From: an uncultured Candidatus Saccharimonadales bacterium | Lineage (GTDB): Bacteria > Patescibacteriota > Saccharimonadia > UBA4664 | Direction of reading: 5' to 3' | Assembly: GCA_964609585.1 (NCBI GenBank) | Contig: CAZSRA010000001.1 | Span: forward strand, 220,697-284,696 | DNA length: 64,000 bases | In this document: piece after piece, positions 3,580-64,000 of the stretch | Layout: the number at the start of each line of letters is the position of its first letter | Numbering within the stretch: the first letter of the stretch is position 1 | Translations under genes and position numbers: made by a program | Notes under the pieces: model-generated | Seen by the model: only the letters and a program-made list of their open reading frames with translations | Told to the model about the DNA's origin: nothing | Database searches by the model: none

Positions 3580-4527
3580 CTATGTAATTATCGCATACAT
3601 TAGCGCGGCAATGATGAGACCAAGCTGAATTAGGCCGTAGGTTAGGAGTCGTCGTTTTTCATGTACGACCCGGGCTAGATAGCGATTGTCCAAAAAACCG
3701 AGGGGTAGAATGTAGGTAAGAAGGTTGGTGAGAGCTATGGTGGAGAAGTAGATGAGGAGATAGCCACCAAATAGCCAACCATTGATTGTTAGTCTGGAGA
3801 AAATTATACCGACAACTAGAGCGACTAGCGTCCAGTAGGCGGCGTAGAGCCAATACCGTGCGTGACCACGCCGTCCTAGCCGGTCGCGCAAGTAGCCTTT
3901 GTAGGCGTAGTCGAAGGTAAAACCTAGCGGATAGGCGCACAATGATCCGACTAGCATCATTTGTAGCTCGGGCTTATGTAGAGCAAGCAGCATGAAGGCA
4001 AAGGGTGAGCAAAATTTTGCAAATCGTTCAATGAACACCGTAATGACTTTGCCTCGTCCGGCGTGGGAGTGCATGGCTGACAAGACTGCGAGCAAGACGC
4101 TATAACCCAGCAAGCTCAGGAACAAGCGATGCCAGATGAGACTGATTCCGATCATGAGCACCAGATATGATGCGGCTAGATAATAAAGGTATCCATTTCC
4201 TAGTACGTGGCGGGCGGTTTGTTTGGGTATTTTAAGCAGGCTATCTTTGCGGCGGTCAATAATGTCATTAACGATATAAATTATGTTGTAGAAATAGGCA
4301 GAGATAAGAGTAATTACTACTGGAGCAATGTAGGCGCGGAGGCGTGTCTCGCCCTGAAGCATGAGAATTACGAGATAGGGGCTCATGCTGCCAAGAGCCA
4401 GCATGAGGTTTACTGGAAAGGTAGTGTTGTAGGCAACCGCGAAGTAGCCGCGCCGAAAGAATGCGGCAAAGCGGTTGTTGGTTTCAGCAAAGGAGAGAGT
4501 GCCAATGAGGCTATTGAGAATGTTCAT
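3580..4527 (-). CDS. UbiA-family polyprenyl transferase (decaprenyl-phosphate phosphoribosyl/glycosyl-carrier type)
   Basis: Multi-TM protein with the NDxxDxxxD motif (YIVNDIIDRRKD). Start chosen at MNILNSL (ATG 4527), which forms an ATGA overlap with the upstream flippase stop; GGAG RBS. Confidence 0.6.
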   Translation of the reverse strand: MNILNSLIGTLSFAETNNRFAAFFRRGYFAVAYNTTFPVNLMLALGSMSPYLVILMLQGETRLRAYIAPVVITLISAYFYNIIYIVNDIIDRRKDSLLKIPKQTARHVLGNGYLYYLAASYLVLMIGISLIWHRLFLSLLGYSVLLAVLSAMHSHAGRGKVITVFIERFAKFCSPFAFMLLALHKPELQMMLVGSLCAYPLGFTFDYAYKGYLRDRLGRRGHARYWLYAAYWTLVALVVGIIFSRLTINGWLFGGYLLIYFSTIALTNLLTYILPLGFLDNRYLARVVHEKRRLLTYGLIQLGLIIAALMYAIIT

Positions 4528-27144: not shown

Positions 27145-28212
27145 TTATTTGGCGGCTGGTAGTTGGCCAGCGGCAGCAGGCGTTGGGGTGGGGCCTGGGT
27201 TTTTGGCGCCAAAGAGTGATGTGATGCCGGTGAATACGCCGTCGATAGCTTTGGTGATTTGATCGAGAATGCTGGGGGCAGTTGAGCTGGTGAGGCTGGT
27301 GGGGTTGGTCGTTGTCTGCGGCGCCCTCACGACAACGGCCTGATTTGGGCTAGGATCAATTTGTTTTGCGGTTACAACGAGACGACGCAGCGAGGTGCCT
27401 GGAGGTGTGCAGGTGATGAGGGTGAGAGTGGGGGTGGGGGTGGCATTGAGTACCGATACGTCGGTGGGATCGACGACTTTGCTGCCGGTGACTTCATAGG
27501 TGTAGCGTTTGGATTGGTAATCGAGGCTAATGTGGTCGCCGGGGCTGAGTTTGTCGAGGAGCACAAATACAAACTTGAAATTACCTGGCTCCCACCAGTC
27601 GTTTGAGGAGTGGCCAAAAATGGCGACATTGCCGGCTTGGCCGGGGGCGGCGGTGTTGCCATAGTGCACTACGCCGTTTTGCAGAGCGGCTTGGACAGCG
27701 GCTTCTTGGATGCTGGGTTCGTATTGGACGGGGGCGTGAACATTGATTTTGGCGATGGTGATGGTGTTTTCGGCTGGAATAGCTTCAGCCGCAGCGGGAG
27801 TTACCGCACTTACCGGCGAGGGTTCGGGGTGATGGCCGAGTGAATATTGAACTTGATTGATAATAATGGGTGCTTTAAATAGCAAGAGCACAAGCAAGAA
27901 TATGCCAGCAGCGGTTAGAAATGGCACCAGGGCAGAAGGCACTTTGCGGCGATGAATCATAGGGGCGGTTTGGGCTGTGGTTGCGAGCGCTTGTTTGCTT
28001 GTAACGAGGTCTACGGTGGGTGTTGCCGGAACGGCTTCGGCGCGCGTTAGAGGGTGGATTTCGGGAGTGGCGGCAATGCGAGCTCTGGCAATGGCGGCGG
28101 CTTCAGGGTGCAAGACTCGTTCCGGTGAACGTACAGCTTGGGTCTGCGCAATGGGAAATTCGTTGCGCAGTCTGATCGAGCCGATGGTTAAGGTGTCGGA
28201 ATTGTTTGCCAT
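27145..28212 (-). CDS. sortase family transpeptidase
   Basis: Catalytic triad context: His (NVAIFGHSS), Cys (LTLITCTP) and Arg (LRRLVV); N-terminal TM anchor. Confidence 0.75.
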   Translation of the reverse strand: MANNSDTLTIGSIRLRNEFPIAQTQAVRSPERVLHPEAAAIARARIAATPEIHPLTRAEAVPATPTVDLVTSKQALATTAQTAPMIHRRKVPSALVPFLTAAGIFLLVLLLFKAPIIINQVQYSLGHHPEPSPVSAVTPAAAEAIPAENTITIAKINVHAPVQYEPSIQEAAVQAALQNGVVHYGNTAAPGQAGNVAIFGHSSNDWWEPGNFKFVFVLLDKLSPGDHISLDYQSKRYTYEVTGSKVVDPTDVSVLNATPTPTLTLITCTPPGTSLRRLVVTAKQIDPSPNQAVVVRAPQTTTNPTSLTSSTAPSILDQITKAIDGVFTGITSLFGAKNPGPTPTPAAAGQLPAAK

Positions 28213-28319
28213 AATTGTTTGTAGTACCGGTTCTATGATATCTTGAGTTACGTGTTAACGCCAAACCTTAGCCCTTCACGTTTGGTTATTATAGCATAAA
28301 TGTACCTATATTACAATTT

Positions 28320-28406
28320 GCCGCTGTGGTGGAATGGTAGACACAAGGGACTCAAAATCCCTCGATCGTAAAGATCATGTCGGTTCGAGTCCGACCAGCG
28401 GTACCA
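28320..28406 (+). tRNA. tRNA-Leu (anticodon CAA), class II with long variable arm
   Basis: 7-bp acceptor stem GCCGCTG/CAGCGGT, anticodon loop CTCAAAA, T-arm GGTTCGAGTCC, and an encoded CCA. Confidence 0.85.
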
Positions 28407-28463
28407 AGAACTTATGCTTATGGCGATCCGATTTGGGTTGTTATTTGTTTTATCGCCTGTTTT

Positions 28464-29453
28464 TTAAGAAGCCTGTGCGACTAACTCTTCAAAATGCTCA
28501 AAGGTTGGTGGTGTTTCTTTTAAATTATCGGTAATGCCTGTGAGCAGAATGTAATCATTTCGCGCGTTCATACCGTGTCCTGTGTAACTATTCCAGCCCA
28601 ATTCTTTGGCTTTTTCGACAACATCAATTTCGAGGTGGGGACGAATGTCTACAAACACACCTTCTTTACCAGTGTGGGCTTCGAGAATTTGGTTGATGCC
28701 CGATTCGTCGGTGGCCCCTTCCTTTCCGGCGGCATTAATGACAATGACTCCTTCGGGCAAGGTTGATCCATCGATCTCACTGAGTGACGCACGATATTCG
28801 GTCGTGGTTAATTGTGCTAGGCTCCGGGCTAGATCAGATTTATTAGTAGGGTCGATTAAAACTAATTGACTGGGGTGTTGCGCCGCAATTCTTTTAGCTA
28901 CTGGCTCCCCTACCCCACCGACACCCACAAGAACTACTGGTTTGTCTTCGAAACTCCCCACTTCATCATTGAACCAGCTAACGAATGCTGGTGCATTGAG
29001 ATCGTAGGGGGCAAGCTTTCCTTCAGCATCACGGATGAGTGTATCAACGTTTTCGGAAGAATTTTCGTCTCCTAAAAACATTGCTCGAATGGTAGGCGCA
29101 CTTTTGTGTGGCTGGGTGATGTTGACGGCAGGTACACGATCCATATTCTCTACTAGCTCAAAGAAACGTTGCAACTCCTCAGTATCGTCTTTTTCGATGT
29201 CTACAGGCACATACAGAAAGTTTGGCAGGACTTGATTCATGTACGTGCGGCTAGTGGATTTGTCCCAGCCCTCAGAGTCTTTGTGGGCGATGTATGGGCA
29301 GATTGCGAAGTTCGGATAGTTTTCGATGAACGTTTTGAATCCTTCTACCCCTTTTGCCACTGGTATTTTTTCTTGGGCGAAAGGCATTTCGGCTGAAGCT
29401 GGAAATTCAGGGGATGGTTGATTTTCGTTGGGGTTGAATGAGGGTTGTTCCAT
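28464..29453 (-). CDS. shikimate/quinate dehydrogenase-family oxidoreductase (AroE-like)
   Basis: The segment NITQPHK resembles the NVTIPHK motif, followed by a Rossmann segment VVLVGVGGVG. The gene is noticeably more AT-rich than its neighbours and lies next to the tRNA. Confidence 0.5.
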   Translation of the reverse strand: MEQPSFNPNENQPSPEFPASAEMPFAQEKIPVAKGVEGFKTFIENYPNFAICPYIAHKDSEGWDKSTSRTYMNQVLPNFLYVPVDIEKDDTEELQRFFELVENMDRVPAVNITQPHKSAPTIRAMFLGDENSSENVDTLIRDAEGKLAPYDLNAPAFVSWFNDEVGSFEDKPVVLVGVGGVGEPVAKRIAAQHPSQLVLIDPTNKSDLARSLAQLTTTEYRASLSEIDGSTLPEGVIVINAAGKEGATDESGINQILEAHTGKEGVFVDIRPHLEIDVVEKAKELGWNSYTGHGMNARNDYILLTGITDNLKETPPTFEHFEELVAQAS

Positions 29454-41809: not shown

Positions 41810-43240
41810 ATGCGGTTTAGTGACATTATTTTGACGGCTCTGCGTAACATTCGACGGCAGAAGCTGCGGTCGGTGCTAACGATTTTTGCGGTGGTGATTG
41901 GTGCAACTTCGGTAACCATAATGCTCGCGCTAGTGACGGGGGTGAAGACGTTTTTTGTGAGCCAGTTTTCGGCCAATGGGACATTGCAGCAGATTGCGAT
42001 TTCGCAGAAGGCGGATCTCACGAAATTTGGCGACGCTGGGCATGATGGTGGTGGGTGTGATAGCTGCGTGAAGCTGACGGACGCTATGACGGACAAGATT
42101 AAGGCGATTCCGCACGTGACCGGCGTGGCACGGAATTTAACCTCTGGGATGGTGGAATCGATTACGTACAACGGGGTGAAATTGAGTCTGCAACAGGTGG
42201 TGGGCTACGATGCCAACGGTGTAGTGACGAACACGATGTCGGCGGGGCGTGACATTGGGCCGAGTGATATGGCGGATGTGATTACGGTAACGAGTGAATA
42301 CGCCGATAAATGGGGCTTTAAGGGGCACTATTCGGATCTGTTGGGCAAGCAGGCGCAACTGACCACGCGTGGCGGCTATAGCGGCGTGGGTGCGACGGTC
42401 ACTCCCCCATCGAACCAGCCAGGCAACGGTGGCAATAATGATCCGCGAAATATGCCGGCGACGGTGCTTACGGCGACTATTGTGGGAGTGCAAGATTCGG
42501 GCGGCGATAATGGTGGGCAATCGGTGCGGGGTCCATTGGCCTGGGTACGACAGATGAATGTGCAGCACATGTACCAAATGACCGCGGCGGATCAGAAGGC
42601 CAATGAAAGCCAGTGTCGGAATGTGCCGGGGCCGTGCAACCCGGTGCAACATATGACGCTGGTGGCTGAGGATCAATTTGATAGCTCTGGTTACAATTCG
42701 CTGACGGCGAAGGTGGATGATCCGAAGAATGCGGCGGCTGCGGTGGTGGAGATTAAGAAATTGGGTGTGGGAGCAGCGGATGCGGAGAGCTTCATTAAAG
42801 CGCAACTGACGATCTTTAACATTATTGGTTATGTGCTCGGTGGGATCGGCGGCATTGCGCTTCTCGTTGCCACGATCGGGGTGATTAACACGATGGTGAT
42901 GGCGATTTTGGAGCGCACACGCGAGATCGGAGTGCTGCGGGCGTGCGGCGCTACGAAGAGTACGATCCGGCGGCTGTTTACGATTGAGGCGGGGCTGTTG
43001 GGCTTTTGGGGTGGAGTGTTTGGAGTGGCTTTCGGGTACGGGCTGACGCTGGTGGCGAACGTTTTGATCAATCAGCAACTGCACACCAACGCAGTAAAAG
43101 CGGCCAACATTATTGCATTGCCGTGGTGGCTCATTGGAAGCGTGATTGGGGCGACGACGGTGATTGGGATGCTGGCTGGACTGTATCCGGCAATGCGGGC
43201 AGCGCGGCTCAATCCGGTGGATGCGCTGCGGTACGAATAG
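41810..43240 (+). CDS. ABC transporter permease, FtsX/MacB-type with large periplasmic domain
   Basis: One TM helix, a periplasmic domain of about 270 aa, then the FtsX 3-TM module (GVINTMVMAILERTREIGVLRACGA). Confidence 0.75.
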   Translation: MRFSDIILTALRNIRRQKLRSVLTIFAVVIGATSVTIMLALVTGVKTFFVSQFSANGTLQQIAISQKADLTKFGDAGHDGGGCDSCVKLTDAMTDKIKAIPHVTGVARNLTSGMVESITYNGVKLSLQQVVGYDANGVVTNTMSAGRDIGPSDMADVITVTSEYADKWGFKGHYSDLLGKQAQLTTRGGYSGVGATVTPPSNQPGNGGNNDPRNMPATVLTATIVGVQDSGGDNGGQSVRGPLAWVRQMNVQHMYQMTAADQKANESQCRNVPGPCNPVQHMTLVAEDQFDSSGYNSLTAKVDDPKNAAAAVVEIKKLGVGAADAESFIKAQLTIFNIIGYVLGGIGGIALLVATIGVINTMVMAILERTREIGVLRACGATKSTIRRLFTIEAGLLGFWGGVFGVAFGYGLTLVANVLINQQLHTNAVKAANIIALPWWLIGSVIGATTVIGMLAGLYPAMRAARLNPVDALRYE

Positions 43241-43434
43241 GCATCAACTACTTCCAAATCTAAGTCAGTAGTTCTAGGGTAACGACGCTTTAACTGATCA
43301 CTTTTAAATTACGTAAAAAGCCTTTTTCTTCTATCCCATCTCACGCAGTTCCCCGGCCGTAGGGTCGAGGGGATTCATTTAAGCTCTGCGAAAATTCTTC
43401 GATTCTCGAGTTTGGGGGAGTGTAAACTATAAAG

Positions 43435-43463
43435 TTGATATATTATGCTAAATATTATATAAT
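43435..43463 (+). promoter_or_regulatory. consensus sigma70-type promoter (TTGATA-17 bp-TATAAT)
   Basis: -35 TTGATA at 43435-43440, an exact 17-bp spacer, and a perfect -10 TATAAT at 43458-43463. The GAAGGAG RBS lies 6 nt before the ATG at 43511. Confidence 0.55.
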
Positions 43464-43510
43464 GTAAAAGTCATCCAGACCCACCCCCAAGAGAGAACGA
43501 AGGAGACAGC

Positions 43511-43822
43511 ATGGTCACCGATATGGTGCACAGGATGCTGAGAGTGTCCGATGTCAACGGACACGGCTGGGATGTCCTCGTCTGGGGCACACTGCCCGAA
43601 GTCGAAGCCATTCGTGACCGCCTACTCGCTCAAATCGCAAGCGGCGAGGTCACCACGACCTTCACGGTTCATCGCGGACCGAACGACATCAAGACCCTCA
43701 CCATGGAGCTGCCGGCCGTCACGTGCGAGTTGGTCCCCACGTATCTCGTACGAATCACCGGGACAGTCACGGACGATGGCGATCGCCTCACCATGCAGGC
43801 TGACGACACCAGTACTGCCTAG
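43511..43822 (+). CDS. small hypothetical protein (103 aa), cassette gene 1
   Basis: Strong RBS and promoter. Codon third positions are C-rich on the + strand, against the local G/T strand bias. No recognisable domain. Confidence 0.5.
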   Translation: MVTDMVHRMLRVSDVNGHGWDVLVWGTLPEVEAIRDRLLAQIASGEVTTTFTVHRGPNDIKTLTMELPAVTCELVPTYLVRITGTVTDDGDRLTMQADDTSTA

Positions 43823-43859
43823 CGACGCTGAAGCTCTCGCCCGCCAAGAGTCCACAACT

Positions 43860-44060
43860 ATGGACTACGACTTCGGCGGGCGGGTCAAGGACTTCGAGGC
43901 GCTGTATGTCGCCGAGACCTTCGAGCACATGTGTCAGCTCCACGACACCTGTCAGAACGGTGTCGGCTCCAGCATCGACTGGTACATCGGCCAGGACGAG
44001 ATTGGCACCATCACTGCGCTGGACATCACCCAGCTGGAAACGAACAGCAAGCTGAGCTAG
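43860..44060 (+). CDS. small hypothetical protein (66 aa), cassette gene 2
   Basis: ATG-initiated ORF 37 nt after gene 1 with the same C-rich codon bias. The 169-aa ORF of the ORF track covers it in this frame, but the first half of that ORF is out of frame with gene 1. Confidence 0.35.
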   Translation: MDYDFGGRVKDFEALYVAETFEHMCQLHDTCQNGVGSSIDWYIGQDEIGTITALDITQLETNSKLS

Positions 44061-44069
44061 GCCTCGGCC

Positions 44070-44136
44070 GGGCTAGTAGCTCAAGGGTAGAGCACCGCGC
44101 AAGCGGAGGTAGCAGGTTCGAATCCTGCCTAGTTCG
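44070..44136 (+). pseudogene. degenerate tRNA-like element (intact acceptor, D and T arms; anticodon arm truncated)
   Basis: GGGCTAG-TA-GCTC-AAGGGTA-GAGC and GCAGG-TTCGAAT-CCTGC-CTAGTTC-G fit tRNA acceptor/D/T geometry. Only 17 nt lie between the D and T arms where about 22 are needed, and no CCA is encoded. Confidence 0.45.
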
Positions 44137-44143
44137 CAAATAA

Positions 44144-44185
44144 CCCCGGATATTCATAGTGGTATCCGGGGTTCATGCCTTTTTG
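44144..44185 (+). terminator. intrinsic terminator-like hairpin
   Basis: Perfect 9-bp stem CCCCGGATA/TATCCGGGG with a 10-nt loop, followed by a TTTTT run. Confidence 0.5.
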
Positions 44186-44271
44186 GTCTAATGGATAATG
44201 GGTGATCTCACTTAGCGACTTATTGAAAACGGATCGCGGATGCGTGGTCTGTGATATATTCTGACCGTGTG

Positions 44272-45402
44272 CTAGCTTTTTACGACTTCCCAGGGGAATT
44301 CGGGGCGGCCGAAGTGACCATAGGCGGCGGTGGCGCGGTAGATGGGGCGACGCAGGTCTAGACCTTCAATGATGCCTTTGACGCTGGTGTCGAGGAGGTT
44401 GTGGCAAAAGGCGTCAATTTCTTTCGGGGTAGCATGGGCGGTGCCGAAGGTGTCGACTTCTTGCATGACGGGGTGCTTGGCGCCAATGAAATAAGCGAGA
44501 GCCACTTCGGCGCGGTCGGCAAGGCCAGCGGCTACGAGGTTTTTGGCGAGGTAGCGAGCGGCGTAGGCGGCGGAGCGGTCGACTTTGGTCGGGTCCTTGC
44601 CGCTGAAGGCGCCGCCGCCCACGCGGGCGTAGCCACCATAGCCATCGACAACGATTTTGCGACCAGTGAGGCCAGCGTCGCTGACGGGACCAGAGATGTG
44701 CCAGATGCCGGTGCCGTTTACGACGACGTCGATGGGCTCGATGTTGAAGTTGTAGCGTTTGAGCGTGGGGACAATGATGGTTTTGTAGATGTCGTGTTTG
44801 ACCTGCTCAAGTTTGACGTGTTCCTGATGGGGTACAGCAATCGTGACATGGGAGATGCCAACGGCTTTGCCGTCTTGATATTTAACGGTGACTTGGGCTT
44901 TGCCGTCGGGGCGGAGGTAGCTGAGGCGGCCGGACTCGCGGGCTTGGTCGATAGCGAGGGTGAGCTGGTGCGCTAGCGTAATAGGCAAAGGCATGAGCTC
45001 AGGAGTTTCGCGGCAAGCGTAGCCGAACATCATGCCTTGGTCGCCGGCACCGTCTAGGTCTACGCCGGCCGCGATTTCAGGTGATTGCTGGCGAATATAG
45101 ATGTCGATGGCGGCTTGGTCGTTGAAGCTTAGAGCGGGGTCGGTGTAGCCGAGGCGGCGGATTTCGGTGCGAACGATGTTTTCGAGATCGAGTTTAGCGG
45201 TAGTGAGGATTTCGCCGGCTAAAATTACGCGGCCAGCTGTGGCCAGGGTTTCGACGCCAGTATGGCCATTGGGATCTTGGCGGAGGATTTCATCGACGAT
45301 AGCGTCGGAGATTTGGTCGCAGACTTTGTCGGGATGACCGGCACAGACGCTTTCGGAGGTGAAGAATTGGATGGGCATGAGAAAACCTTTCTCCGAAGGC
45401 AA
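44272..45402 (-). CDS. metK: S-adenosylmethionine synthetase
   Basis: GHPDKVCDQISDAIVD and GGGAFSGKDPTKVDRSAAY signatures. Confidence 0.92.
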   Translation of the reverse strand: MPSEKGFLMPIQFFTSESVCAGHPDKVCDQISDAIVDEILRQDPNGHTGVETLATAGRVILAGEILTTAKLDLENIVRTEIRRLGYTDPALSFNDQAAIDIYIRQQSPEIAAGVDLDGAGDQGMMFGYACRETPELMPLPITLAHQLTLAIDQARESGRLSYLRPDGKAQVTVKYQDGKAVGISHVTIAVPHQEHVKLEQVKHDIYKTIIVPTLKRYNFNIEPIDVVVNGTGIWHISGPVSDAGLTGRKIVVDGYGGYARVGGGAFSGKDPTKVDRSAAYAARYLAKNLVAAGLADRAEVALAYFIGAKHPVMQEVDTFGTAHATPKEIDAFCHNLLDTSVKGIIEGLDLRRPIYRATAAYGHFGRPEFPWEVVKS

Positions 45403-45574
45403 GAAAGGTGTAGTGACTTCACATATCTCCCCGATCGGGCTAGACGTAGCACCTTCATGTTTAGATGAGGTTGCTGGCAGGTCGACGGGCTAGATCCCTC
45501 GCTGCACTCTTGATATGAATTATTTGATTGTACGGCTTATGTTACGCGTTTGATGTTGGTTCGGCAATGGGTTT

Positions 45575-56387: not shown

Positions 56388-56792
56388 ATGCGAGAGTTTG
56401 GTAAGGCGATTAGCTACGAAAAACGAGCCGATATCACAAGGGCTGCTATGGTGGTGTTTAATGCTACTCCGAATCGGAAGCTGGCACGGGCGAGTGAATT
56501 TGAACTCGATGTGGCGGATGATCCGGTGGTGGTATATATCGCGGATGTGCGTTGGAAGGAAGGCCGGCTGAGGATTGCGGTAACGACCCAGGAGGCGCAA
56601 CCTTCATTTGAATGGCAGGTTGAGATTACCTCAAATGTGGACGAGACGGACTATTTCAAGCATTATTTGATTTTGGATGAGCAGGTGGTTTTGGCTCAAC
56701 GCAAGGTACTCACGCCGATCGACGAGGAGGAAGCAGCGGTAATTTTAGCGGATCTTGCAAAAGCTGAAGCGGTGCTTGACGCTAAGAAGTAG
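56388..56792 (+). CDS. hypothetical protein
   Basis: 134-aa ORF with no recognisable domain. Confidence 0.3.
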   Translation: MREFGKAISYEKRADITRAAMVVFNATPNRKLARASEFELDVADDPVVVYIADVRWKEGRLRIAVTTQEAQPSFEWQVEITSNVDETDYFKHYLILDEQVVLAQRKVLTPIDEEEAAVILADLAKAEAVLDAKK

Positions 56793-59319
56793 GATTTTCT
56801 AGCATTTTTAGGATGCGCGCAATATCGATGCCGGGTCCGAGGACAGGCTTCCAAAGATCGCCGACGGTTTTGAAGCGGGCTGGGGCGTTTTCGATGGTGA
56901 ACTGGATGGGTTTAAGGCCTGGCTTTACTTCGTCCCAATGAAGGGGCGTGGAAACGGTAGCATGGGGTCTCGGTCGCGCGCTGTAGGGCGCGGCGAGCGT
57001 TTGGCCGTGACGGTTTTGCAAGAAATCGAGGTAGATTTTGCCCTGGCGTTTGGTGGGGCTGCGTTCGACGCTTGTGAGATCTGGGGTTCTTTTGTGGACG
57101 TTCCTTGCGATGAGTTCGGCAAACATTTTGACTTGGTCATGGGTGTATTTGGCACCGGTGGGAATGTAGATATGCAGGCCGGTGGCGCCGGAGGTTTTGG
57201 GGTAGCTGGGGATATCAAGCTCGTCCAGGAACGCGTGAACGGCCTGGGCGGTTTTGACGACGGAGCTGAAGGTAGTGGCTTCGGGGTCGAGGTCAATGAC
57301 GCACCAATCGGGGTTGTCGAGATTGCCTGTGCGGGAGTTCCAGGGGTTGATGTCGATGCAGCCGAGGTTAATCATGTACAAGAGAGCGGCTTCATCTTGG
57401 CAGAGAAGGTATTCGATGTCGTGATCCTCGCCAGTTGAATGGATGGTGATGGTTTTGGCCCAACTCGGGGCGTGGCCTGCCATATCTTTTTGGTAGAAAT
57501 TTGGGCCGGCGATGCCGTCGGGGTAGCGTTTGAGGGACTCTGGGCGGTCTTTGAGGTAGGGCAGAATGAGGGGTGCCACTTCGGCGTAGTAATCGAGGAG
57601 CTGGCCTTTGGTGATGCGTTCTTTGGGCCAGTAGACTTTGCCCGTATGAGTGAGTTGGATAGTGTGGCCGTTTAGTTCTAAGGTTTTGTCTGAGCTGGTT
57701 TGTGGCGGGGTTTCGGGTTTTTGTGGTTGCATGGCTTTTCCTTTGGTTTGGGACGAGACGGATATTTCGAGGTGAACGTCGGTAGCTAGTTTATCTTCGC
57801 GTAAGCCCATAAAAATTGGGTGGCGCATGGAGCCGTCGGCGGTCCATTCGGTGAATTCTACCTCGCAGACGAGCTTGGGCGTGACCCAGTGGGCGGGTTC
57901 GTTGGTTTTGGGGGTGGGTGTAATGGGGCAATCTGAGGTAACGAGGGGTTGGAGACGGTTAAAAAGGTCTCGCAGTACTTCATCGGAAAAGCCACTGCCG
58001 GTATGGCCGGTGAAGATGAGGTTATGATCATCGTCGTATAGGCCGAGTACGAGAGCGCCGAAATATTGCCGGCTTTCGCGCGGGTCGGTATAGCCGATGA
58101 TAACGACTTCTTGGCGGAGGTGGGTTTTGATTTTGAGCCAGTCGCGACTGCGGGTGTTTGGGTGGTACAAGGAGTCTGCGCGTTTGGCCATGAGGCCTTC
58201 GAGGTTTTGTTTGCGGGCGGCTTCAAATAGTGGTACGCCTTGTGCTTTAAAGTGCTCGCTGTACTTGATGTGCGGTCCGTGCAGGAGGCCAAGGAGGCGT
58301 TTGAGCAAGAGCTTGCGGGTGCTGAGGGGAAGGTCCGTGAGATTATAGCTGTCAACGTATAAGAGGTCGAAGGCGTTGTAGATGAGCTGGCCGACTCCCG
58401 TGTGGATGTAGGCTTGGAGGTCTTGAAAGTCGGTACGGCCACGAGCATCCACTACGGTCATTTCGCCGTCGATGAGGGCAGGTACTTTGAGCGGGCTTAG
58501 ATCGGCTGCGGCGGCACTAAAGCGCTCGGTGTAGTCTTGGTTGTTGCGGGAGTGGAGGGTGACGGTGTGTGGGCTGGTTTCGGCCATGATGCGGTAGCCG
58601 TCCCATTTGACCTCAAAAAGCCAGTCGGGATTATTGAAGGGCGCTTCGGTGAGGGTGGCGAGCATGGGCTGAAACGTTGCAGGTGGCGGGGTTTTGGGGA
58701 GGCCTTTGAGGCCGAAGTTGAGCTTGGTGATGGGTTTTTCCGATGCCACTTCTTCGATGGTGCGGCCGGTGATGACGGAGCGGTTTTGTTTGGTGAGGTC
58801 TTTTGTGCTTATGAACTTGTCTTTGTGAGCTTTGATGAGGAGCCAGGCAGCTTTTTCTTCGGCATGGGCGATTTTTACGAGGGCGAATTCGCCGTTTAGT
58901 TTTTCGCCGTGGAGAATGAAAGTGAGGTGCTGGTTGTGGACGCCGGTGAGGGCGAGCTGATCATTTTCGTCGCGGTTTTCGGTGGCATAAAGGGGTTCGT
59001 AGGTGCCTTGGTCCCAAATGATGACGGGACCGGCGCCGTAATTGCCTTCGGGGATGAGGCCTTCAAAATACTGGTAGTCGAGGGGATGATCTTCGGTCAT
59101 GACGGCGAGGTGTTTGTCTTTGGGGTTGAGACTGGGTCCTTTTGGTATGGCCCAGCTTTTCATAACACCCCCCATTTCCAGGCGAAAATCGTAATGGAGG
59201 GCGGTGGCGTCGTGTTTTTGGACGACAAACCGTAATTGATCGCTCCCCTCTCCGCCGGCGGGTTCGGGGGTGCGGGCGAAATCGCGTTTGGCGTGGTAGT
59301 CGTGGAGAAGGCGGGGCAT
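56782..59319 (-). CDS. ligD: multidomain ATP-dependent DNA ligase D (phosphoesterase - ligase - polymerase/primase)
   Basis: N-terminal PE domain (RFVVQKHDATALHYDFRLE), adenylation motif I (FEVKWDGYR), and a C-terminal LigD polymerase domain; 845 aa. Confidence 0.85.
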   Translation of the reverse strand: MPRLLHDYHAKRDFARTPEPAGGEGSDQLRFVVQKHDATALHYDFRLEMGGVMKSWAIPKGPSLNPKDKHLAVMTEDHPLDYQYFEGLIPEGNYGAGPVIIWDQGTYEPLYATENRDENDQLALTGVHNQHLTFILHGEKLNGEFALVKIAHAEEKAAWLLIKAHKDKFISTKDLTKQNRSVITGRTIEEVASEKPITKLNFGLKGLPKTPPPATFQPMLATLTEAPFNNPDWLFEVKWDGYRIMAETSPHTVTLHSRNNQDYTERFSAAAADLSPLKVPALIDGEMTVVDARGRTDFQDLQAYIHTGVGQLIYNAFDLLYVDSYNLTDLPLSTRKLLLKRLLGLLHGPHIKYSEHFKAQGVPLFEAARKQNLEGLMAKRADSLYHPNTRSRDWLKIKTHLRQEVVIIGYTDPRESRQYFGALVLGLYDDDHNLIFTGHTGSGFSDEVLRDLFNRLQPLVTSDCPITPTPKTNEPAHWVTPKLVCEVEFTEWTADGSMRHPIFMGLREDKLATDVHLEISVSSQTKGKAMQPQKPETPPQTSSDKTLELNGHTIQLTHTGKVYWPKERITKGQLLDYYAEVAPLILPYLKDRPESLKRYPDGIAGPNFYQKDMAGHAPSWAKTITIHSTGEDHDIEYLLCQDEAALLYMINLGCIDINPWNSRTGNLDNPDWCVIDLDPEATTFSSVVKTAQAVHAFLDELDIPSYPKTSGATGLHIYIPTGAKYTHDQVKMFAELIARNVHKRTPDLTSVERSPTKRQGKIYLDFLQNRHGQTLAAPYSARPRPHATVSTPLHWDEVKPGLKPIQFTIENAPARFKTVGDLWKPVLGPGIDIARILKMLENPTS

Positions 59320-60089
59320 TATTTTGAAGCGGTTTCGAGGCTAGCGACGAGTGCGGCCATGAGATCGGTGGTGGGTTTATGGGATGCGGGTTTGGTCTTG
59401 GCAACGGGTTGGTGTTTGACCTTGGCTTTGATGCGGTCTTCGAGCTCTTCGGTGTAACTGTCGTGGAAATCTTCGGGGATGAAGGGTTTGGTGAGTTGTT
59501 TAATGAGCTTTTCGGCCATTTCGAGCTCGCTTGGTGTGGCTTTGTGCTGAGGCGGCAAGTTGAGTGAGCCAGGGGTGTGGAGGTCGGCAGGAAAGCGCAT
59601 TTGGTTTAGGACGAGGGCTGAGCCAACGGGTTTGATGGCGGCCAGATGTTCGCGGTCGCGCAGGACAAACCGGGCGACGGCGATTTTATCTGCTTTTTTG
59701 AGGGCTTCACGTAGGAGGGCGTAGGCTTTTTCGCCGCCCTTAGTGGGTTCGAGGTAGTACGGTTTTTCGAGGTAGCGAATGTCGACCTCGTCTTCTTCGG
59801 AAAATTGTGCAATGTCGACGGTGCTGGTGTGCTCGCCCTCGGCGGCTTCGAAGTCTTTGTCGGTGAGGATCACGAACTTGTCGTCGTCATATTCATAGGC
59901 TTTGACGATTTCTTCATAGGGGACCTCTTTGTCTTCGGTTTCGCAGATTTTGGCGTAGCGGATCTTGCCTTGGTCGGGGGCGTGTAGCATGTGGAGATCG
60001 ATGCCGTCACGGGTGTCGGCAGCGGAATAGAGTTTGACTGGGATGTTGATGAGGCCGAAGGAAATGGAGCCAGTCCAAAGTGCGCGCAT
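59319..60089 (-). CDS. ku: Ku DNA end-binding protein
   Basis: MRALWTGSISFGLINIPVKLYSA start canonical for bacterial Ku. Its stop overlaps the ligD ATG (TAATG). Confidence 0.88.
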   Translation of the reverse strand: MRALWTGSISFGLINIPVKLYSAADTRDGIDLHMLHAPDQGKIRYAKICETEDKEVPYEEIVKAYEYDDDKFVILTDKDFEAAEGEHTSTVDIAQFSEEDEVDIRYLEKPYYLEPTKGGEKAYALLREALKKADKIAVARFVLRDREHLAAIKPVGSALVLNQMRFPADLHTPGSLNLPPQHKATPSELEMAEKLIKQLTKPFIPEDFHDSYTEELEDRIKAKVKHQPVAKTKPASHKPTTDLMAALVASLETASK

Positions 60090-60236
60090 AGGGATCCTCC
60101 CGGGATTTATGCTTATGATTATAGCGCATGACTGGGGTTAGTTTTGTGTCGTTATCGCGCGGTAAGTTGACTGACTTACAGTAAGCTGGCATTGTATATC
60201 TGAAGATCGGTAATGTGCCGGTCTTTGTAGGCTTCG

Positions 60237-60833
60237 ATGGAGAAGGGCGGCGCTATGAACCGCGTCAAAGACATTCAGAACCACAACGACCTTAGGGCGC
60301 AACCGGACACAAGAACCGTTGAAGTGTCGTATGGCGACTTCACGTTTTGGGTGATCTCCAGTCCACTTATCGAGGATAGCGTCCTGGTGATGCCCAACGA
60401 CCGGGTCAACTATCCGTGCTTTTCCTGCGGATTCCGGACCAGTCGCCGGGTGCTGGAGGTGACGCGAGATGGCAAGATGATCCGGGGCGTGAGGGTCATT
60501 TGCAAGGATTGTTGGCCGATCTATGAGCTCCATTACCGCGCAGCAAATCTTGACGCCATTCTGGTGACGGCTGCTGCTCAGCGGTACAAGTTTTCGGTAG
60601 CATTTTTCACCATCGGCAGGCGGGCGGCCGAAGTAAGCAGACTGCGCGACTACGCCGAAATCCTTCGGACATCGGGTCGGCTGATCGACCAGCCGCCGGT
60701 TCAACTGCTCGAGACTTCAGCGGCCAGTGAGGCCCCCGAACCGCCGGTTCGACGAGACACTGCCGTGTTGCTCGAAGAGACCGATGCGTTGCTGGAAGCG
60801 ATGGATGATCTGCTCAATCCGGCCGCTGACTAG
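60237..60833 (+). CDS. hypothetical protein with CxxC...CxxC zinc-ribbon-like motif, cassette gene A
   Basis: YPCFSCGF...ICKDCWP four-Cys pattern. Alternative start at ATG 60255 with a GAAGGG RBS. Composition differs from flanking genes. Confidence 0.45.
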   Translation: MEKGGAMNRVKDIQNHNDLRAQPDTRTVEVSYGDFTFWVISSPLIEDSVLVMPNDRVNYPCFSCGFRTSRRVLEVTRDGKMIRGVRVICKDCWPIYELHYRAANLDAILVTAAAQRYKFSVAFFTIGRRAAEVSRLRDYAEILRTSGRLIDQPPVQLLETSAASEAPEPPVRRDTAVLLEETDALLEAMDDLLNPAAD

Positions 60834-60910
60834 GGTCTTACAGATAGGCTCCTCGGGGTTGTTGCAAGGGTACATTCAGAATTCGGTTTCCGATCGAAAG
60901 GAGGCCAGCA

Positions 60911-61627
60911 ATGGCCGAAACAAAGCGAACGGGTAAGAAAGAGGCTCTCCGTTGCGCGAGAGTGCGCCAGCAGTCGCGGGGACGAATTGCAGTCCGGGCG
61001 GTGGGAAACGGGCGCTGGTTGTGGTTCCATCTCCAGGATATTCAGTTGGCTTTGAAGACCGGTTACGAGCCTCTGCTGAAGTCTAGGATGAAGATGCTCG
61101 ATGACTTCCGGCTATTCTATACGCCTCTGGCCTTTGATATCGCCTCGCATGTTGTTCGGCTGAGAGGAGTCGAGACGGTTGCTATTCGAGGTGACCGCAT
61201 AGGCGTGGAAGTGGCAAGTGCGGAGTGCTGGCCCGAAGTGTTGCCTGGCATTATTGCGACGATCCGCAAGTTCCATCCGCAAGAGCGGGTGCCGATTTGG
61301 CTGAGGCCGCATTTCGATCCGTTGGTGGAAATGTGGCATGCGCCTTTGTTGGCCGAGCTCTTTCCGGACGAAATAAAGATCCGGCGGGTGAATCGGTGGC
61401 TCAAGTACGCGATACTTCGAGCCATGGCAAGCTATCGGCCGAAGAGCCGCATCTCCTCGAATGAGTTGATGGTCAAACTGGGCTGGTTCTCGTACATCTT
61501 CTTGTCCAGCGGTCTGGCTCGCGCGCTGGCTGAGCTTCATCGTGAGGGAAGGATTTGGCGGTCTTATCGGAGTAGTCAGGAAGACTTCCTCGATTCCTAC
61601 GCTGTTTACGCGCTACCCCATAACTGA
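60911..61627 (+). CDS. hypothetical protein (238 aa), cassette gene B
   Basis: Arg-rich basic N-terminus; no recognisable domain. GGAGG-like RBS (AAAGGAGG) upstream. Confidence 0.45.
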   Translation: MAETKRTGKKEALRCARVRQQSRGRIAVRAVGNGRWLWFHLQDIQLALKTGYEPLLKSRMKMLDDFRLFYTPLAFDIASHVVRLRGVETVAIRGDRIGVEVASAECWPEVLPGIIATIRKFHPQERVPIWLRPHFDPLVEMWHAPLLAELFPDEIKIRRVNRWLKYAILRAMASYRPKSRISSNELMVKLGWFSYIFLSSGLARALAELHREGRIWRSYRSSQEDFLDSYAVYALPHN

Positions 61628-61646
61628 TTTGGGGTGGCGCTGTCGT

Positions 61647-61670
61647 CGGGACCCGCGTATGCGGGTCCCG
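61647..61670. terminator. 10-bp perfect stem-loop between convergent genes
   Basis: CGGGACCCGC-GTAT-GCGGGTCCCG hairpin. Confidence 0.45.
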
Positions 61671-61714
61671 GAAGGATTCAAGATTTGAAGTTTCGACTTG
61701 AGGTCTTAGATTTT

Positions 61715-62341
61715 TTAAGCTTTGCCGCCGGAGATCTTAATGTCTTTGGCAATGATCTGGCCGGTGGTTTCATCGATCTCGTACAAGTAGACTTCGCCGG
61801 TGCCGATTTCGAGGTTTGAAATGTCGGTTTCGGCGACATTTTCGAGGTGTTTTACGAGAGCACGGAGGCTGTTACCGTGAGCTGCAACGATGACATTTTT
61901 GCCGGCTTTGAGGTCGGCGAGAATGTGTTGTTCGTAATAAGGCACAATGCGGGTGTGGACGTCTTTGAGGGTCTCGCCGCCGGGTACGGGGTGATCCCAG
62001 CTGCGACGAATTTTGGTAAATTCCTCTTCGCCGTACTCTTCGCGGACTTGCCACTTGTTTTTGCCGGTGAGCTGGCCATAGTCGCGCTCGTTGAGAGCGG
62101 CAGCTTTTTTGGCTTCGATTTCGGTTTGGCCAAGCTCGTTTAAGATTTCGGCAAGAGTTTGCTGGGCGCGCTTGAGATTGGAAGTGTGGGCAGCACCAAA
62201 AGTGATGTTTTCCAGTGTTTTGGCAGCGGTGCGAGCCTCGGCTTTGCCCTTTTCGGTGAGTTCGATATCGGTGAGGCCGGTCCATTGGCCGAGTTCGTTC
62301 CATTTGCTTTGGCCGTGACGGACGAGTACGAGATATGGCAT
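61715..62341 (-). CDS. gpmA: histidine-phosphatase superfamily, 2,3-bisphosphoglycerate-dependent phosphoglycerate mutase-like
   Basis: LVLVRHGQSKWN catalytic His motif; 208 aa. Confidence 0.75.
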   Translation of the reverse strand: MPYLVLVRHGQSKWNELGQWTGLTDIELTEKGKAEARTAAKTLENITFGAAHTSNLKRAQQTLAEILNELGQTEIEAKKAAALNERDYGQLTGKNKWQVREEYGEEEFTKIRRSWDHPVPGGETLKDVHTRIVPYYEQHILADLKAGKNVIVAAHGNSLRALVKHLENVAETDISNLEIGTGEVYLYEIDETTGQIIAKDIKISGGKA

Positions 62342-62353
62342 GGTTTTTTCCTG

Positions 62354-64000
<1,647 letters not shown>

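Follow-up and report, generated by a model that had tools for sequence, protein, structure and literature searches.

A rare gene pair beside Ku-LigD and gpmA in a Saccharimonadales genome: an orphan Cys4 protein and a probable DNA-binding protein

Nfu_N (PF08712) is the N-terminal domain of iron-sulfur (Fe-S) scaffolds of the NFU1/NifU type, in which its role is not firmly established. SAV1430 and SeR13 (Protein Data Bank (PDB) entries 1pqx and 2k1h) are stand-alone Nfu_N proteins, and entries 2ltm and 2ltl are NFU1/NifU N-domains. This domain, together with the winged helices of PadR (PF03551), MCM4_WHD (PF21128) and TBPIP-Hop2 (PF07106) and with the zinc-ribbon proteins bearing four cysteines (Cys4), provides the closest described counterparts of two adjacent genes situated between Ku and gpmA in a 64-kb stretch of DNA from an uncultured Candidatus Saccharimonadales bacterium, the whole of which is termed the window hereafter (64,000 nt; contig CAZSRA010000001.1, positions 220,697 to 284,696). 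The two open reading frames (ORFs), referred to as ORF1 and ORF2, are present on the + strand with the lengths of 198 and 238 amino acids (aa) given in an earlier note on this DNA. On balance, and with little more than even confidence, the pair is read here as a small accessory cassette, placed downstream of gpmA at a site that varies between lineages, in which ORF2, a probable DNA-binder, and its Cys4 partner ORF1 would form a regulatory pair. The cassette was most likely gained from a mobile or accessory gene pool and not by core inheritance. Its parts are as follows.

60237-60833, + strand: ORF1, 198 aa, an orphan Cys4 protein
60417-60512, + strand: zinc-ribbon-like CxxC-(24 aa)-CxxC motif of ORF1 (C61, C64, C89, C92)
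60834-60910, + strand: spacer of 77 nt between ORF1 and ORF2, carrying the Shine-Dalgarno sequence AAAGGAGG
60911-61627, + strand: ORF2, 238 aa, from a small undescribed family

Relatives of the two proteins proved to be very few. A word-indexed search of 5.8 billion proteins matched ORF1 and ORF2 each to itself alone. An exhaustive HMMER scan of 1.84 billion representatives of ~15 billion proteins, for which ORF1 and ORF2 were joined end to end as the query, found nine homologues of ORF2 (E-values (E) of 9e-26 to 1e-4; 30-58% identity) and none of ORF1. The closest of the nine (P0007; 55% identical) is encoded on an 869-bp forest-soil contig, L092, and tblastn located the sole homologue of ORF1 at positions 2-397 of the same contig (38% identity over 118 aa; pairwise E 4e-20), the two homologues there being adjacent and in the same order as in the window. 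Scans of Joint Genome Institute (JGI) metagenomes and of IMG/VR found no relative of ORF1 beyond L092. In comparison with L092, the Nei-Gojobori proportions of nonsynonymous (pN) and synonymous (pS) differences were 0.41 and 0.68 for ORF1 and 0.25 and 0.62 for the C-terminal half of ORF2, and the ratio of nonsynonymous to synonymous rates (dN/dS) between the window and L092 pairs was ~0.2-0.3. As pN is lower than pS in both annotated frames, ORF1 and ORF2 are under purifying selection; they are genuine protein-coding genes. The junction of Ku and ORF1 is matched at 100% by an independent Logan assembly contig (run SRR9179560), indicating that assembly did not bring the two together artificially.

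The four-cysteine, zinc-ribbon-like motif ascribed to ORF1 is indeed present, with C61, C64, C89 and C92 forming CFSC-X24-CKDC and TRDGK lying between the pairs. ORF1 and its only homologue (two sequences only) share all four cysteines and the motifs YPCF.CG and TRDGK without change, and the C-terminal LL.AM..LL helix is also kept. ORF1 thus resembles the Cys4 zinc-ribbon proteins in having a CxxC-Xn-CxxC knuckle pair that is conserved amongst homologues, which here number two sequences. It differs from them in that no zinc-ribbon model matches it and in that the spacing and the TRDGK loop match no known family. To judge from the knuckles ORF1 probably binds zinc, but the putative metal could equally be iron. 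The remainder of the protein comprises a predicted helical middle, a Pro/Ala/Glu-rich linker and a C-terminal amphipathic helix, LLEAMDDLL. No curated family in Pfam, PHROGs, PADLOC or NCBIfam matched ORF1, in which nothing was found beyond the Cys4 motif, and ORF1 alone matched no PDB sequence.

Some other resemblances of ORF1 were considered and set aside. The profile built from its two sequences matched the origin-binding domain of simian virus 40 (SV40) large T antigen in the PDB at E 0.15-0.5, which was treated as noise. The C-terminus EETDALLEAMDDLLN is similar to the motif EETDDLLDEIDDVLEEN of the C-terminal helix of Pup (prokaryotic ubiquitin-like protein); this reading was rejected, there being no Pfam Pup match, no terminal GGQ/GGE and no retention of the acidic residues in the L092 homologue (DAETLLAAMKGLLRG). 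A similarity of 32% identity over 114 aa (pairwise E 3e-5) to a DUF2779/Cas4-like protein encoded next to the ORF2 homologue P0005 was likewise rejected as chance: the cysteines and the PD-(D/E)xK residues are misaligned, and the segment is not kept in the L092 homologue.

ORF2 comprises a basic N-terminal tail (residues 1-25), an Nfu_N-like region (~25-122), a DPxVxxWHxPLLxxLF segment (~135-150) and a winged-helix-like region (~160-225). Its N-terminus had been called highly basic, and the first 30 residues do contain ten Lys/Arg against two Glu. The family alignment (A1) revealed a conserved I(G/S)VR...LWFH(L/I) hairpin, a core of GV..VDVRP.Y..V.V.....W...LP.IV.IIR and the segment DP.V..WH.PLL..LF. 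Long forms have an extra C-terminal module of ~70 residues, and short forms, of 127-152 aa, end after WHxPLL. Two of the short forms are tandem paralogues in one genome (140 and 127 aa; 7460-8384 of L100, GCA_009772075.1, WNFY01000646.1; L097/L100), where they lie amid dTDP-sugar biosynthesis genes, showing that the N-terminal domain exists stand-alone and duplicated.

Sub-threshold matches to Nfu_N were found in five of the ten members of the ORF2 family (best E 1.4e-5). ORF2 itself scored 14.3 bits over residues 77-121 (E 0.044), below the gathering cut-off of 27 bits, and the family profile retrieved from the PDB 1pqx (E 0.0036), 2k1h (0.031), 2ltm (0.28) and 2ltl (0.53). The conserved core and the preceding I.VR....LWFHL hairpin align with the Nfu_N consensus, and the short forms are similar in size to the stand-alone Nfu_N proteins. 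Unlike NifU, ORF2 has no C-terminal CxxC domain, carrying the WHxPLL segment and the putative winged helix instead, and it has no Fe-S assembly gene context. The C-terminal segments of four family members matched winged helices, in all cases below the curated cut-offs: PadR (E 3e-4 and 0.03; 21.1 bits against a cut-off of 27), MCM4_WHD (E 0.083; 13.4 bits against 24.4) and the TBPIP winged helix (E 0.11); the whole-family profile also matched the MCM4 C-terminus (E ~0.12-0.16). In contrast to these families, the winged-helix-like region of ORF2 is C-terminal to an Nfu_N-like domain, an architecture present in neither Pfam nor NCBIfam, and it is missing from the short-form members.

Nothing in Pfam, PHROGs, PADLOC or NCBIfam matched ORF2 above threshold, and ORF2 alone matched no PDB sequence. 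Because no match passes a curated cut-off, the evidence suggests a protein that is Nfu_N-like plus winged-helix-like and not a member of those families. The earlier view that the pair has no recognisable domains therefore holds for both ORFs as far as curated families go, but not for the repeated Nfu_N-like and winged-helix-like signals in ORF2, which is, on the evidence of its sequence, probably a DNA-binding protein. A scan of IMG/VR with alignment A3 found no member of the ORF2 family, and a literature search on SAV1430 and on Nfu_N with a winged helix yielded nothing useful.

The surroundings of the ORF2 homologues vary widely. P0008 has an IS66 transposase upstream and is followed by a gene for a 222-aa unknown protein (L084, L085), its other contigs ending immediately upstream, as a repeat would cause them to. 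P0005 lies between a gene for a 158-aa unknown protein, the DUF2779/Cas4-like protein and an HD protein (L089), P0009 after a GIY-YIG-like gene (L094), P0006 near tig-clpP-rpoBC (L093), and P0012 and P0013 among dTDP-sugar genes (L097, L100). The IS66, GIY-YIG-like and DUF2779/Cas4-like neighbours suggest that the contexts of the family are changing and often mobile. None of the neighbours of the ORF2 homologues outside L092 is similar to ORF1, and to judge from these contigs the ORF1-ORF2 pairing is confined to the clade of the window and L092.

Composition was assessed as GC skew of the + strand in 700-nt windows and by comparing codons with those of 19 + strand host genes of the window. The + strand GC skew of the window is 0.222 +/- 0.069, against 0.055 for ORF1 and 0.139 for ORF2, and the share of G amongst G and C at third codon positions, G3/(G3+C3), is 0.51 in ORF1, 0.63 in ORF2 and 0.72 +/- 0.05 in the host + genes (minimum 0.62). 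The third-position chi-square sets ORF1 well apart (p = 7e-10; 23 per 100 codons compared with 0.6-6.3 in host genes) and leaves ORF2 within the host range (p = 0.003; 5.8 per 100 codons). The excess in ORF1 consists of the C-ending codons GAC, ATC, GCC and CTC. Of the CGG/GAC/C-rich codon usage described in the earlier note, the rise in C-ending codons such as GAC is therefore real in ORF1, but ORF2 is borderline and CGG is host-like, its share of Arg codons (0.40 in ORF1, 0.39 in ORF2, 0.35 in host + genes) not being distinctive. The compositional argument for horizontal acquisition is accordingly sound for ORF1, which is compositionally foreign, and weak for ORF2, which is only marginally so. 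It was also observed that the strand bias extends over the whole 64 kb, the + strand skew being ~0.22 regardless of gene orientation, with G3 ~0.4-0.5 and C3 ~0.15 in + strand genes and the mirror image in - strand genes; the entire window seems to lie on one replichore.

The genes flanking the pair are arranged as follows.

56782-59319, - strand: LigD
59319-60089, - strand: Ku
61715-62341, - strand: His_Phos_1 / gpmA-type gene
62354-62995, - strand: peptidase S51 gene
from 62992, - strand: enolase

A metagenome scan with gpmA provided relatives of the host (L102-L109; gpmA 63-80% and enolase 70-76% identical), in none of which gpmA is followed by Ku, LigD, ORF1 or ORF2. The downstream flank of gpmA is different in every one of them, with an IS30-like gene in L106, a YajQ-like gene in L109 and unrelated unknown genes in L103, L104 and L107. 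In the closest relative, L102 (gpmA 80%), the gene after gpmA (4157-4259) begins MNRSQPSGNAMDMVTLGERGQIVIPAAIRER, which resembles the N-terminus of an AbrB/MazE-type antitoxin, and the contig ends there. As the flank differs in each relative, it is regarded as a lineage-variable spot and the pair as accessory content in it. The relatives possess eno-gpmA without ORF1 and ORF2, and the synteny comparison thus agrees with the earlier view that the pair is no conserved housekeeping operon. A discrete insertion wedged between Ku and gpmA, as the same note had it, is by contrast not demonstrable, since Ku-LigD is also missing beside gpmA in all relatives and no boundary marks are seen.

Two further features of this region are worth recording. 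Enolase directly abuts gpmA in all eight relatives containing both genes, and in the window the S51 peptidase gene lies between them; no S51 homologue occurs there in the eight relatives, the local GC skew (0.12-0.13) is below the window mean, and the gene seems to be a further insertion specific to the lineage. The proteins closest to Ku and LigD (47-55% identity; LigD 47-50%) come from a scatter of taxa that includes Saccharimonadales, Limnocylindria, Chitinophagaceae and Parachlamydiaceae. Given this scatter and the lack of Ku-LigD at gpmA in relatives of the host, the Ku-LigD pair itself looks accessory and horizontally spread, though its codon usage is host-like.

The non-coding parts of the locus are the following.

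60090-60236: divergent intergenic region of 147 nt between Ku (-) and ORF1 (+), holding TTGACT (60167-60172) and TATATC (60195-60200)
61628-61714: gap of 87 nt between ORF2 and gpmA
61647-61656 / 61661-61670: perfect 10-bp GC-rich hairpin, CGGGACCCGC GTAT GCGGGTCCCG, with a 4-nt loop, between the convergent ORF2 and gpmA

A promoter had been proposed at TTGACT...TATATC; the two hexamers are separated by a non-canonical spacer of 22 nt, and a consensus scan of 59800-62000 found no sigma-70-like site, which leaves the proposal unsupported. The first ATG of ORF1 has no Shine-Dalgarno sequence and the second, at 60255, is preceded by GGAGAAGGG; translation may in fact begin at the latter. The ATG of ORF2 is preceded, at a distance of 6 nt, by a strong Shine-Dalgarno sequence (AAAGGAGG, 60897-60904). 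A terminator scan found no terminator-like site on the + strand between ORF1 and ORF2, which fits co-transcription. The perfect 10-bp hairpin reported earlier was located at 61647-61670, its sole occurrence in the 64-kb window (0 expected by chance), and the 92-nt segment around it (61625-61716) has a folding energy of -38.7 kcal/mol (z = -3.8). No U-tract or T-run follows it, for which reason the terminator scan misses it and it departs from the textbook form of an intrinsic terminator; probably it is a transcription stop or an RNA-stabilising stem for ORF2, gpmA or both.

The weak fold signals and the gene linkage point to a regulator with its partner as the likeliest working model. ORF1 and ORF2 would be co-transcribed from the intergenic DNA that separates ORF1 from the divergent Ku, ORF2 would be translated via its own Shine-Dalgarno sequence, and the transcript would end at the hairpin before gpmA. 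ORF2, with its putative C-terminal winged helix and basic N-terminal tail, would bind DNA, and ORF1 would modulate ORF2 by protein-protein contact.

Several observations weigh against a regulatory cassette of foreign origin. Members of the ORF2 family outside the clade of the window and L092 have no ORF1-like neighbour, and the homologue on L092 itself lacks all of the Nfu_N-like half: the frame is open only from position 473, homology begins at about ORF2 residue 129, and the DNA 5' of the frame is T-rich and non-coding. The partnership with ORF1 may thus not need the Nfu_N-like half, or the L092 copy may be decaying. No fold assignment of ORF2 reaches a curated threshold; single-sequence AlphaFold models are poor (predicted local distance difference test, pLDDT, 37 for ORF1 and 50 for ORF2, below 50 in the winged-helix region of the latter), and Foldseek with these models returned nothing. 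A search around the pair for an integrase, a tRNA, flanking direct repeats or other element boundaries found none, and no target-site duplication or flanking repeat around it rises above chance. The composition of ORF2 is atypical merely marginally. Finally, the organism behind contig L089 is distantly related to the host, with which it shares 67% identity in metK, 51% in an ABC ATPase and 72% over a 57-aa stretch. L089 encodes an ORF2 homologue (38%) ~9 kb from metK, and in the window the distance from ORF2 to metK is ~15 kb; vertical descent of ORF2 with rapid divergence is therefore possible. Extended to both genes, this would mean a lineage-specific, vertically inherited and fast-evolving pair in which the composition of ORF1 stems from amino-acid content or from a past inversion against the strand bias. 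The L089 contig, the host-like third positions of ORF2 and the lack of element boundaries are all in line with such a history, but the eight to nine closer relatives sampled via gpmA all lack the pair near gpmA, ORF1 remains an outlier that no host gene approaches, ORF2 homologues stand beside IS66 and in unrelated contexts, and the family has only ~10 members among ~15 billion proteins. For the pair as a whole vertical descent is accordingly thought unlikely, though it deserves weight.

A role in anti-phage defence had been suggested in the earlier note, and a novel defence or toxin-antitoxin-like module in a variable island would suit a two-gene cassette at a variable spot, the AbrB/MazE-like start of the flanking gene in the closest relative, and the GIY-YIG-like, DUF2779/Cas4-like, HD and IS66 neighbours of the ORF2 family. 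It is nevertheless distinctly improbable: PADLOC-DB 2.0 gave no match at E <= 1 for ORF1 or ORF2, and PADLOC none for the family members P0005, P0006, P0008 and P0009; PHROGs, tblastn against 50,697 records from phages and 72,556 from plasmids, and IMG/VR scans gave none for the two ORFs or, in IMG/VR, for the family; neither ORF has a recognisable enzymatic or toxin domain; the ORF1 partner is not conserved across the ORF2 family; and the short-form paralogues lie among dTDP-sugar genes. The proximity of Ku and LigD had also been taken as a hint of a DNA-end function, and the pair does adjoin Ku, in divergent orientation, with ORF2 a probable nucleic-acid binder. An accessory module of non-homologous end joining (NHEJ) acting with Ku and LigD is even so very doubtful, as in 80 Ku-LigD loci from other genomes of diverse phyla in the GTDB representative set, 55 of them with Ku adjoining LigD, no relative of ORF1, ORF2 or gpmA is encoded within 10 kb, neither Ku nor LigD is amongst the called neighbours of any of the nine ORF2 homologues, and the codon usage of Ku and LigD is host-typical and that of ORF1 is not. 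Hardly credible is the view that both ORFs are spurious frames in non-coding or antisense DNA rich in G and C at third codon positions (GC3), the real gene being for example an antisense ORF of 188 aa at 60138-60704. Long antisense ORFs are common in the window, and a codon model trained on window genes scores both ORFs at 0.00 bits per codon, where host + strand genes reach 0.29 +/- 0.10, but the annotated frames still score best of six. The in-frame homology of both ORFs to L092, with its invariant cysteines, refutes this view, and the nine ORF2 homologues, pN/pS well below 1 and the strong Shine-Dalgarno sequence of ORF2 also contradict it. In the light of the sense-frame homology, pN below pS and the frame scores, the antisense ORF is only a by-product of GC3-rich codons.

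With the accessory cassette as the preferred reading, adjacency to Ku and LigD alone does not make the pair an accessory of NHEJ or of defence. The ORF2 family is very rare and uncatalogued and appears to join an Nfu_N-like domain to a winged helix, a new combination, and its partnership with a Cys4 protein is known from two organisms only. It is conceivable, as a rather improbable further step, that the two proteins are founding members of an undescribed two-protein module in which an Nfu_N-like/winged-helix DNA-binder is controlled by a Cys4 (zinc or Fe-S) partner. If so, it might be, for example, a metal- or redox-responsive switch carried on mobile DNA, or else a novel small module of defence or addiction in a poorly sampled and possibly Saccharimonadia-like soil lineage. 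How much the pair matters biologically is uncertain, and no long-standing question is opened by the finding. The gpmA flank in this lineage is a hotspot for unrelated cargo, here Ku-LigD, the ORF1/ORF2 pair and the S51 peptidase, and informs on how a small, strongly strand-biased genome acquires accessory genes, NHEJ genes included.

Other islands of low skew were noted in the window. That at 43001-44400 (skew to -0.04) contains a pair of small + strand ORFs rich in C3 (~43511-43821 and ~43861-44059), neither with a Pfam match, and runs up to a tRNA-like sequence at 44070-44136 (Rfam 51 bits; not called by ARAGORN). It is probably what the earlier note counted as the first two-gene insertion, and gives the impression of cargo that integrated beside a tRNA or tRNA fragment. 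A second, at 28101-29400 (GC 0.44-0.48; skew ~0), lies beside tRNA-Leu(CAA) (28320-28406) and holds a - strand ORF of 329 aa with weak NAD(P)-binding (Rossmann-type) matches only. An S-adenosylmethionine (SAM) riboswitch (Rfam RF00162, 56 bits; 45420-45519, - strand) is located upstream of metK (44272-45402, - strand), which is an ordinary arrangement.

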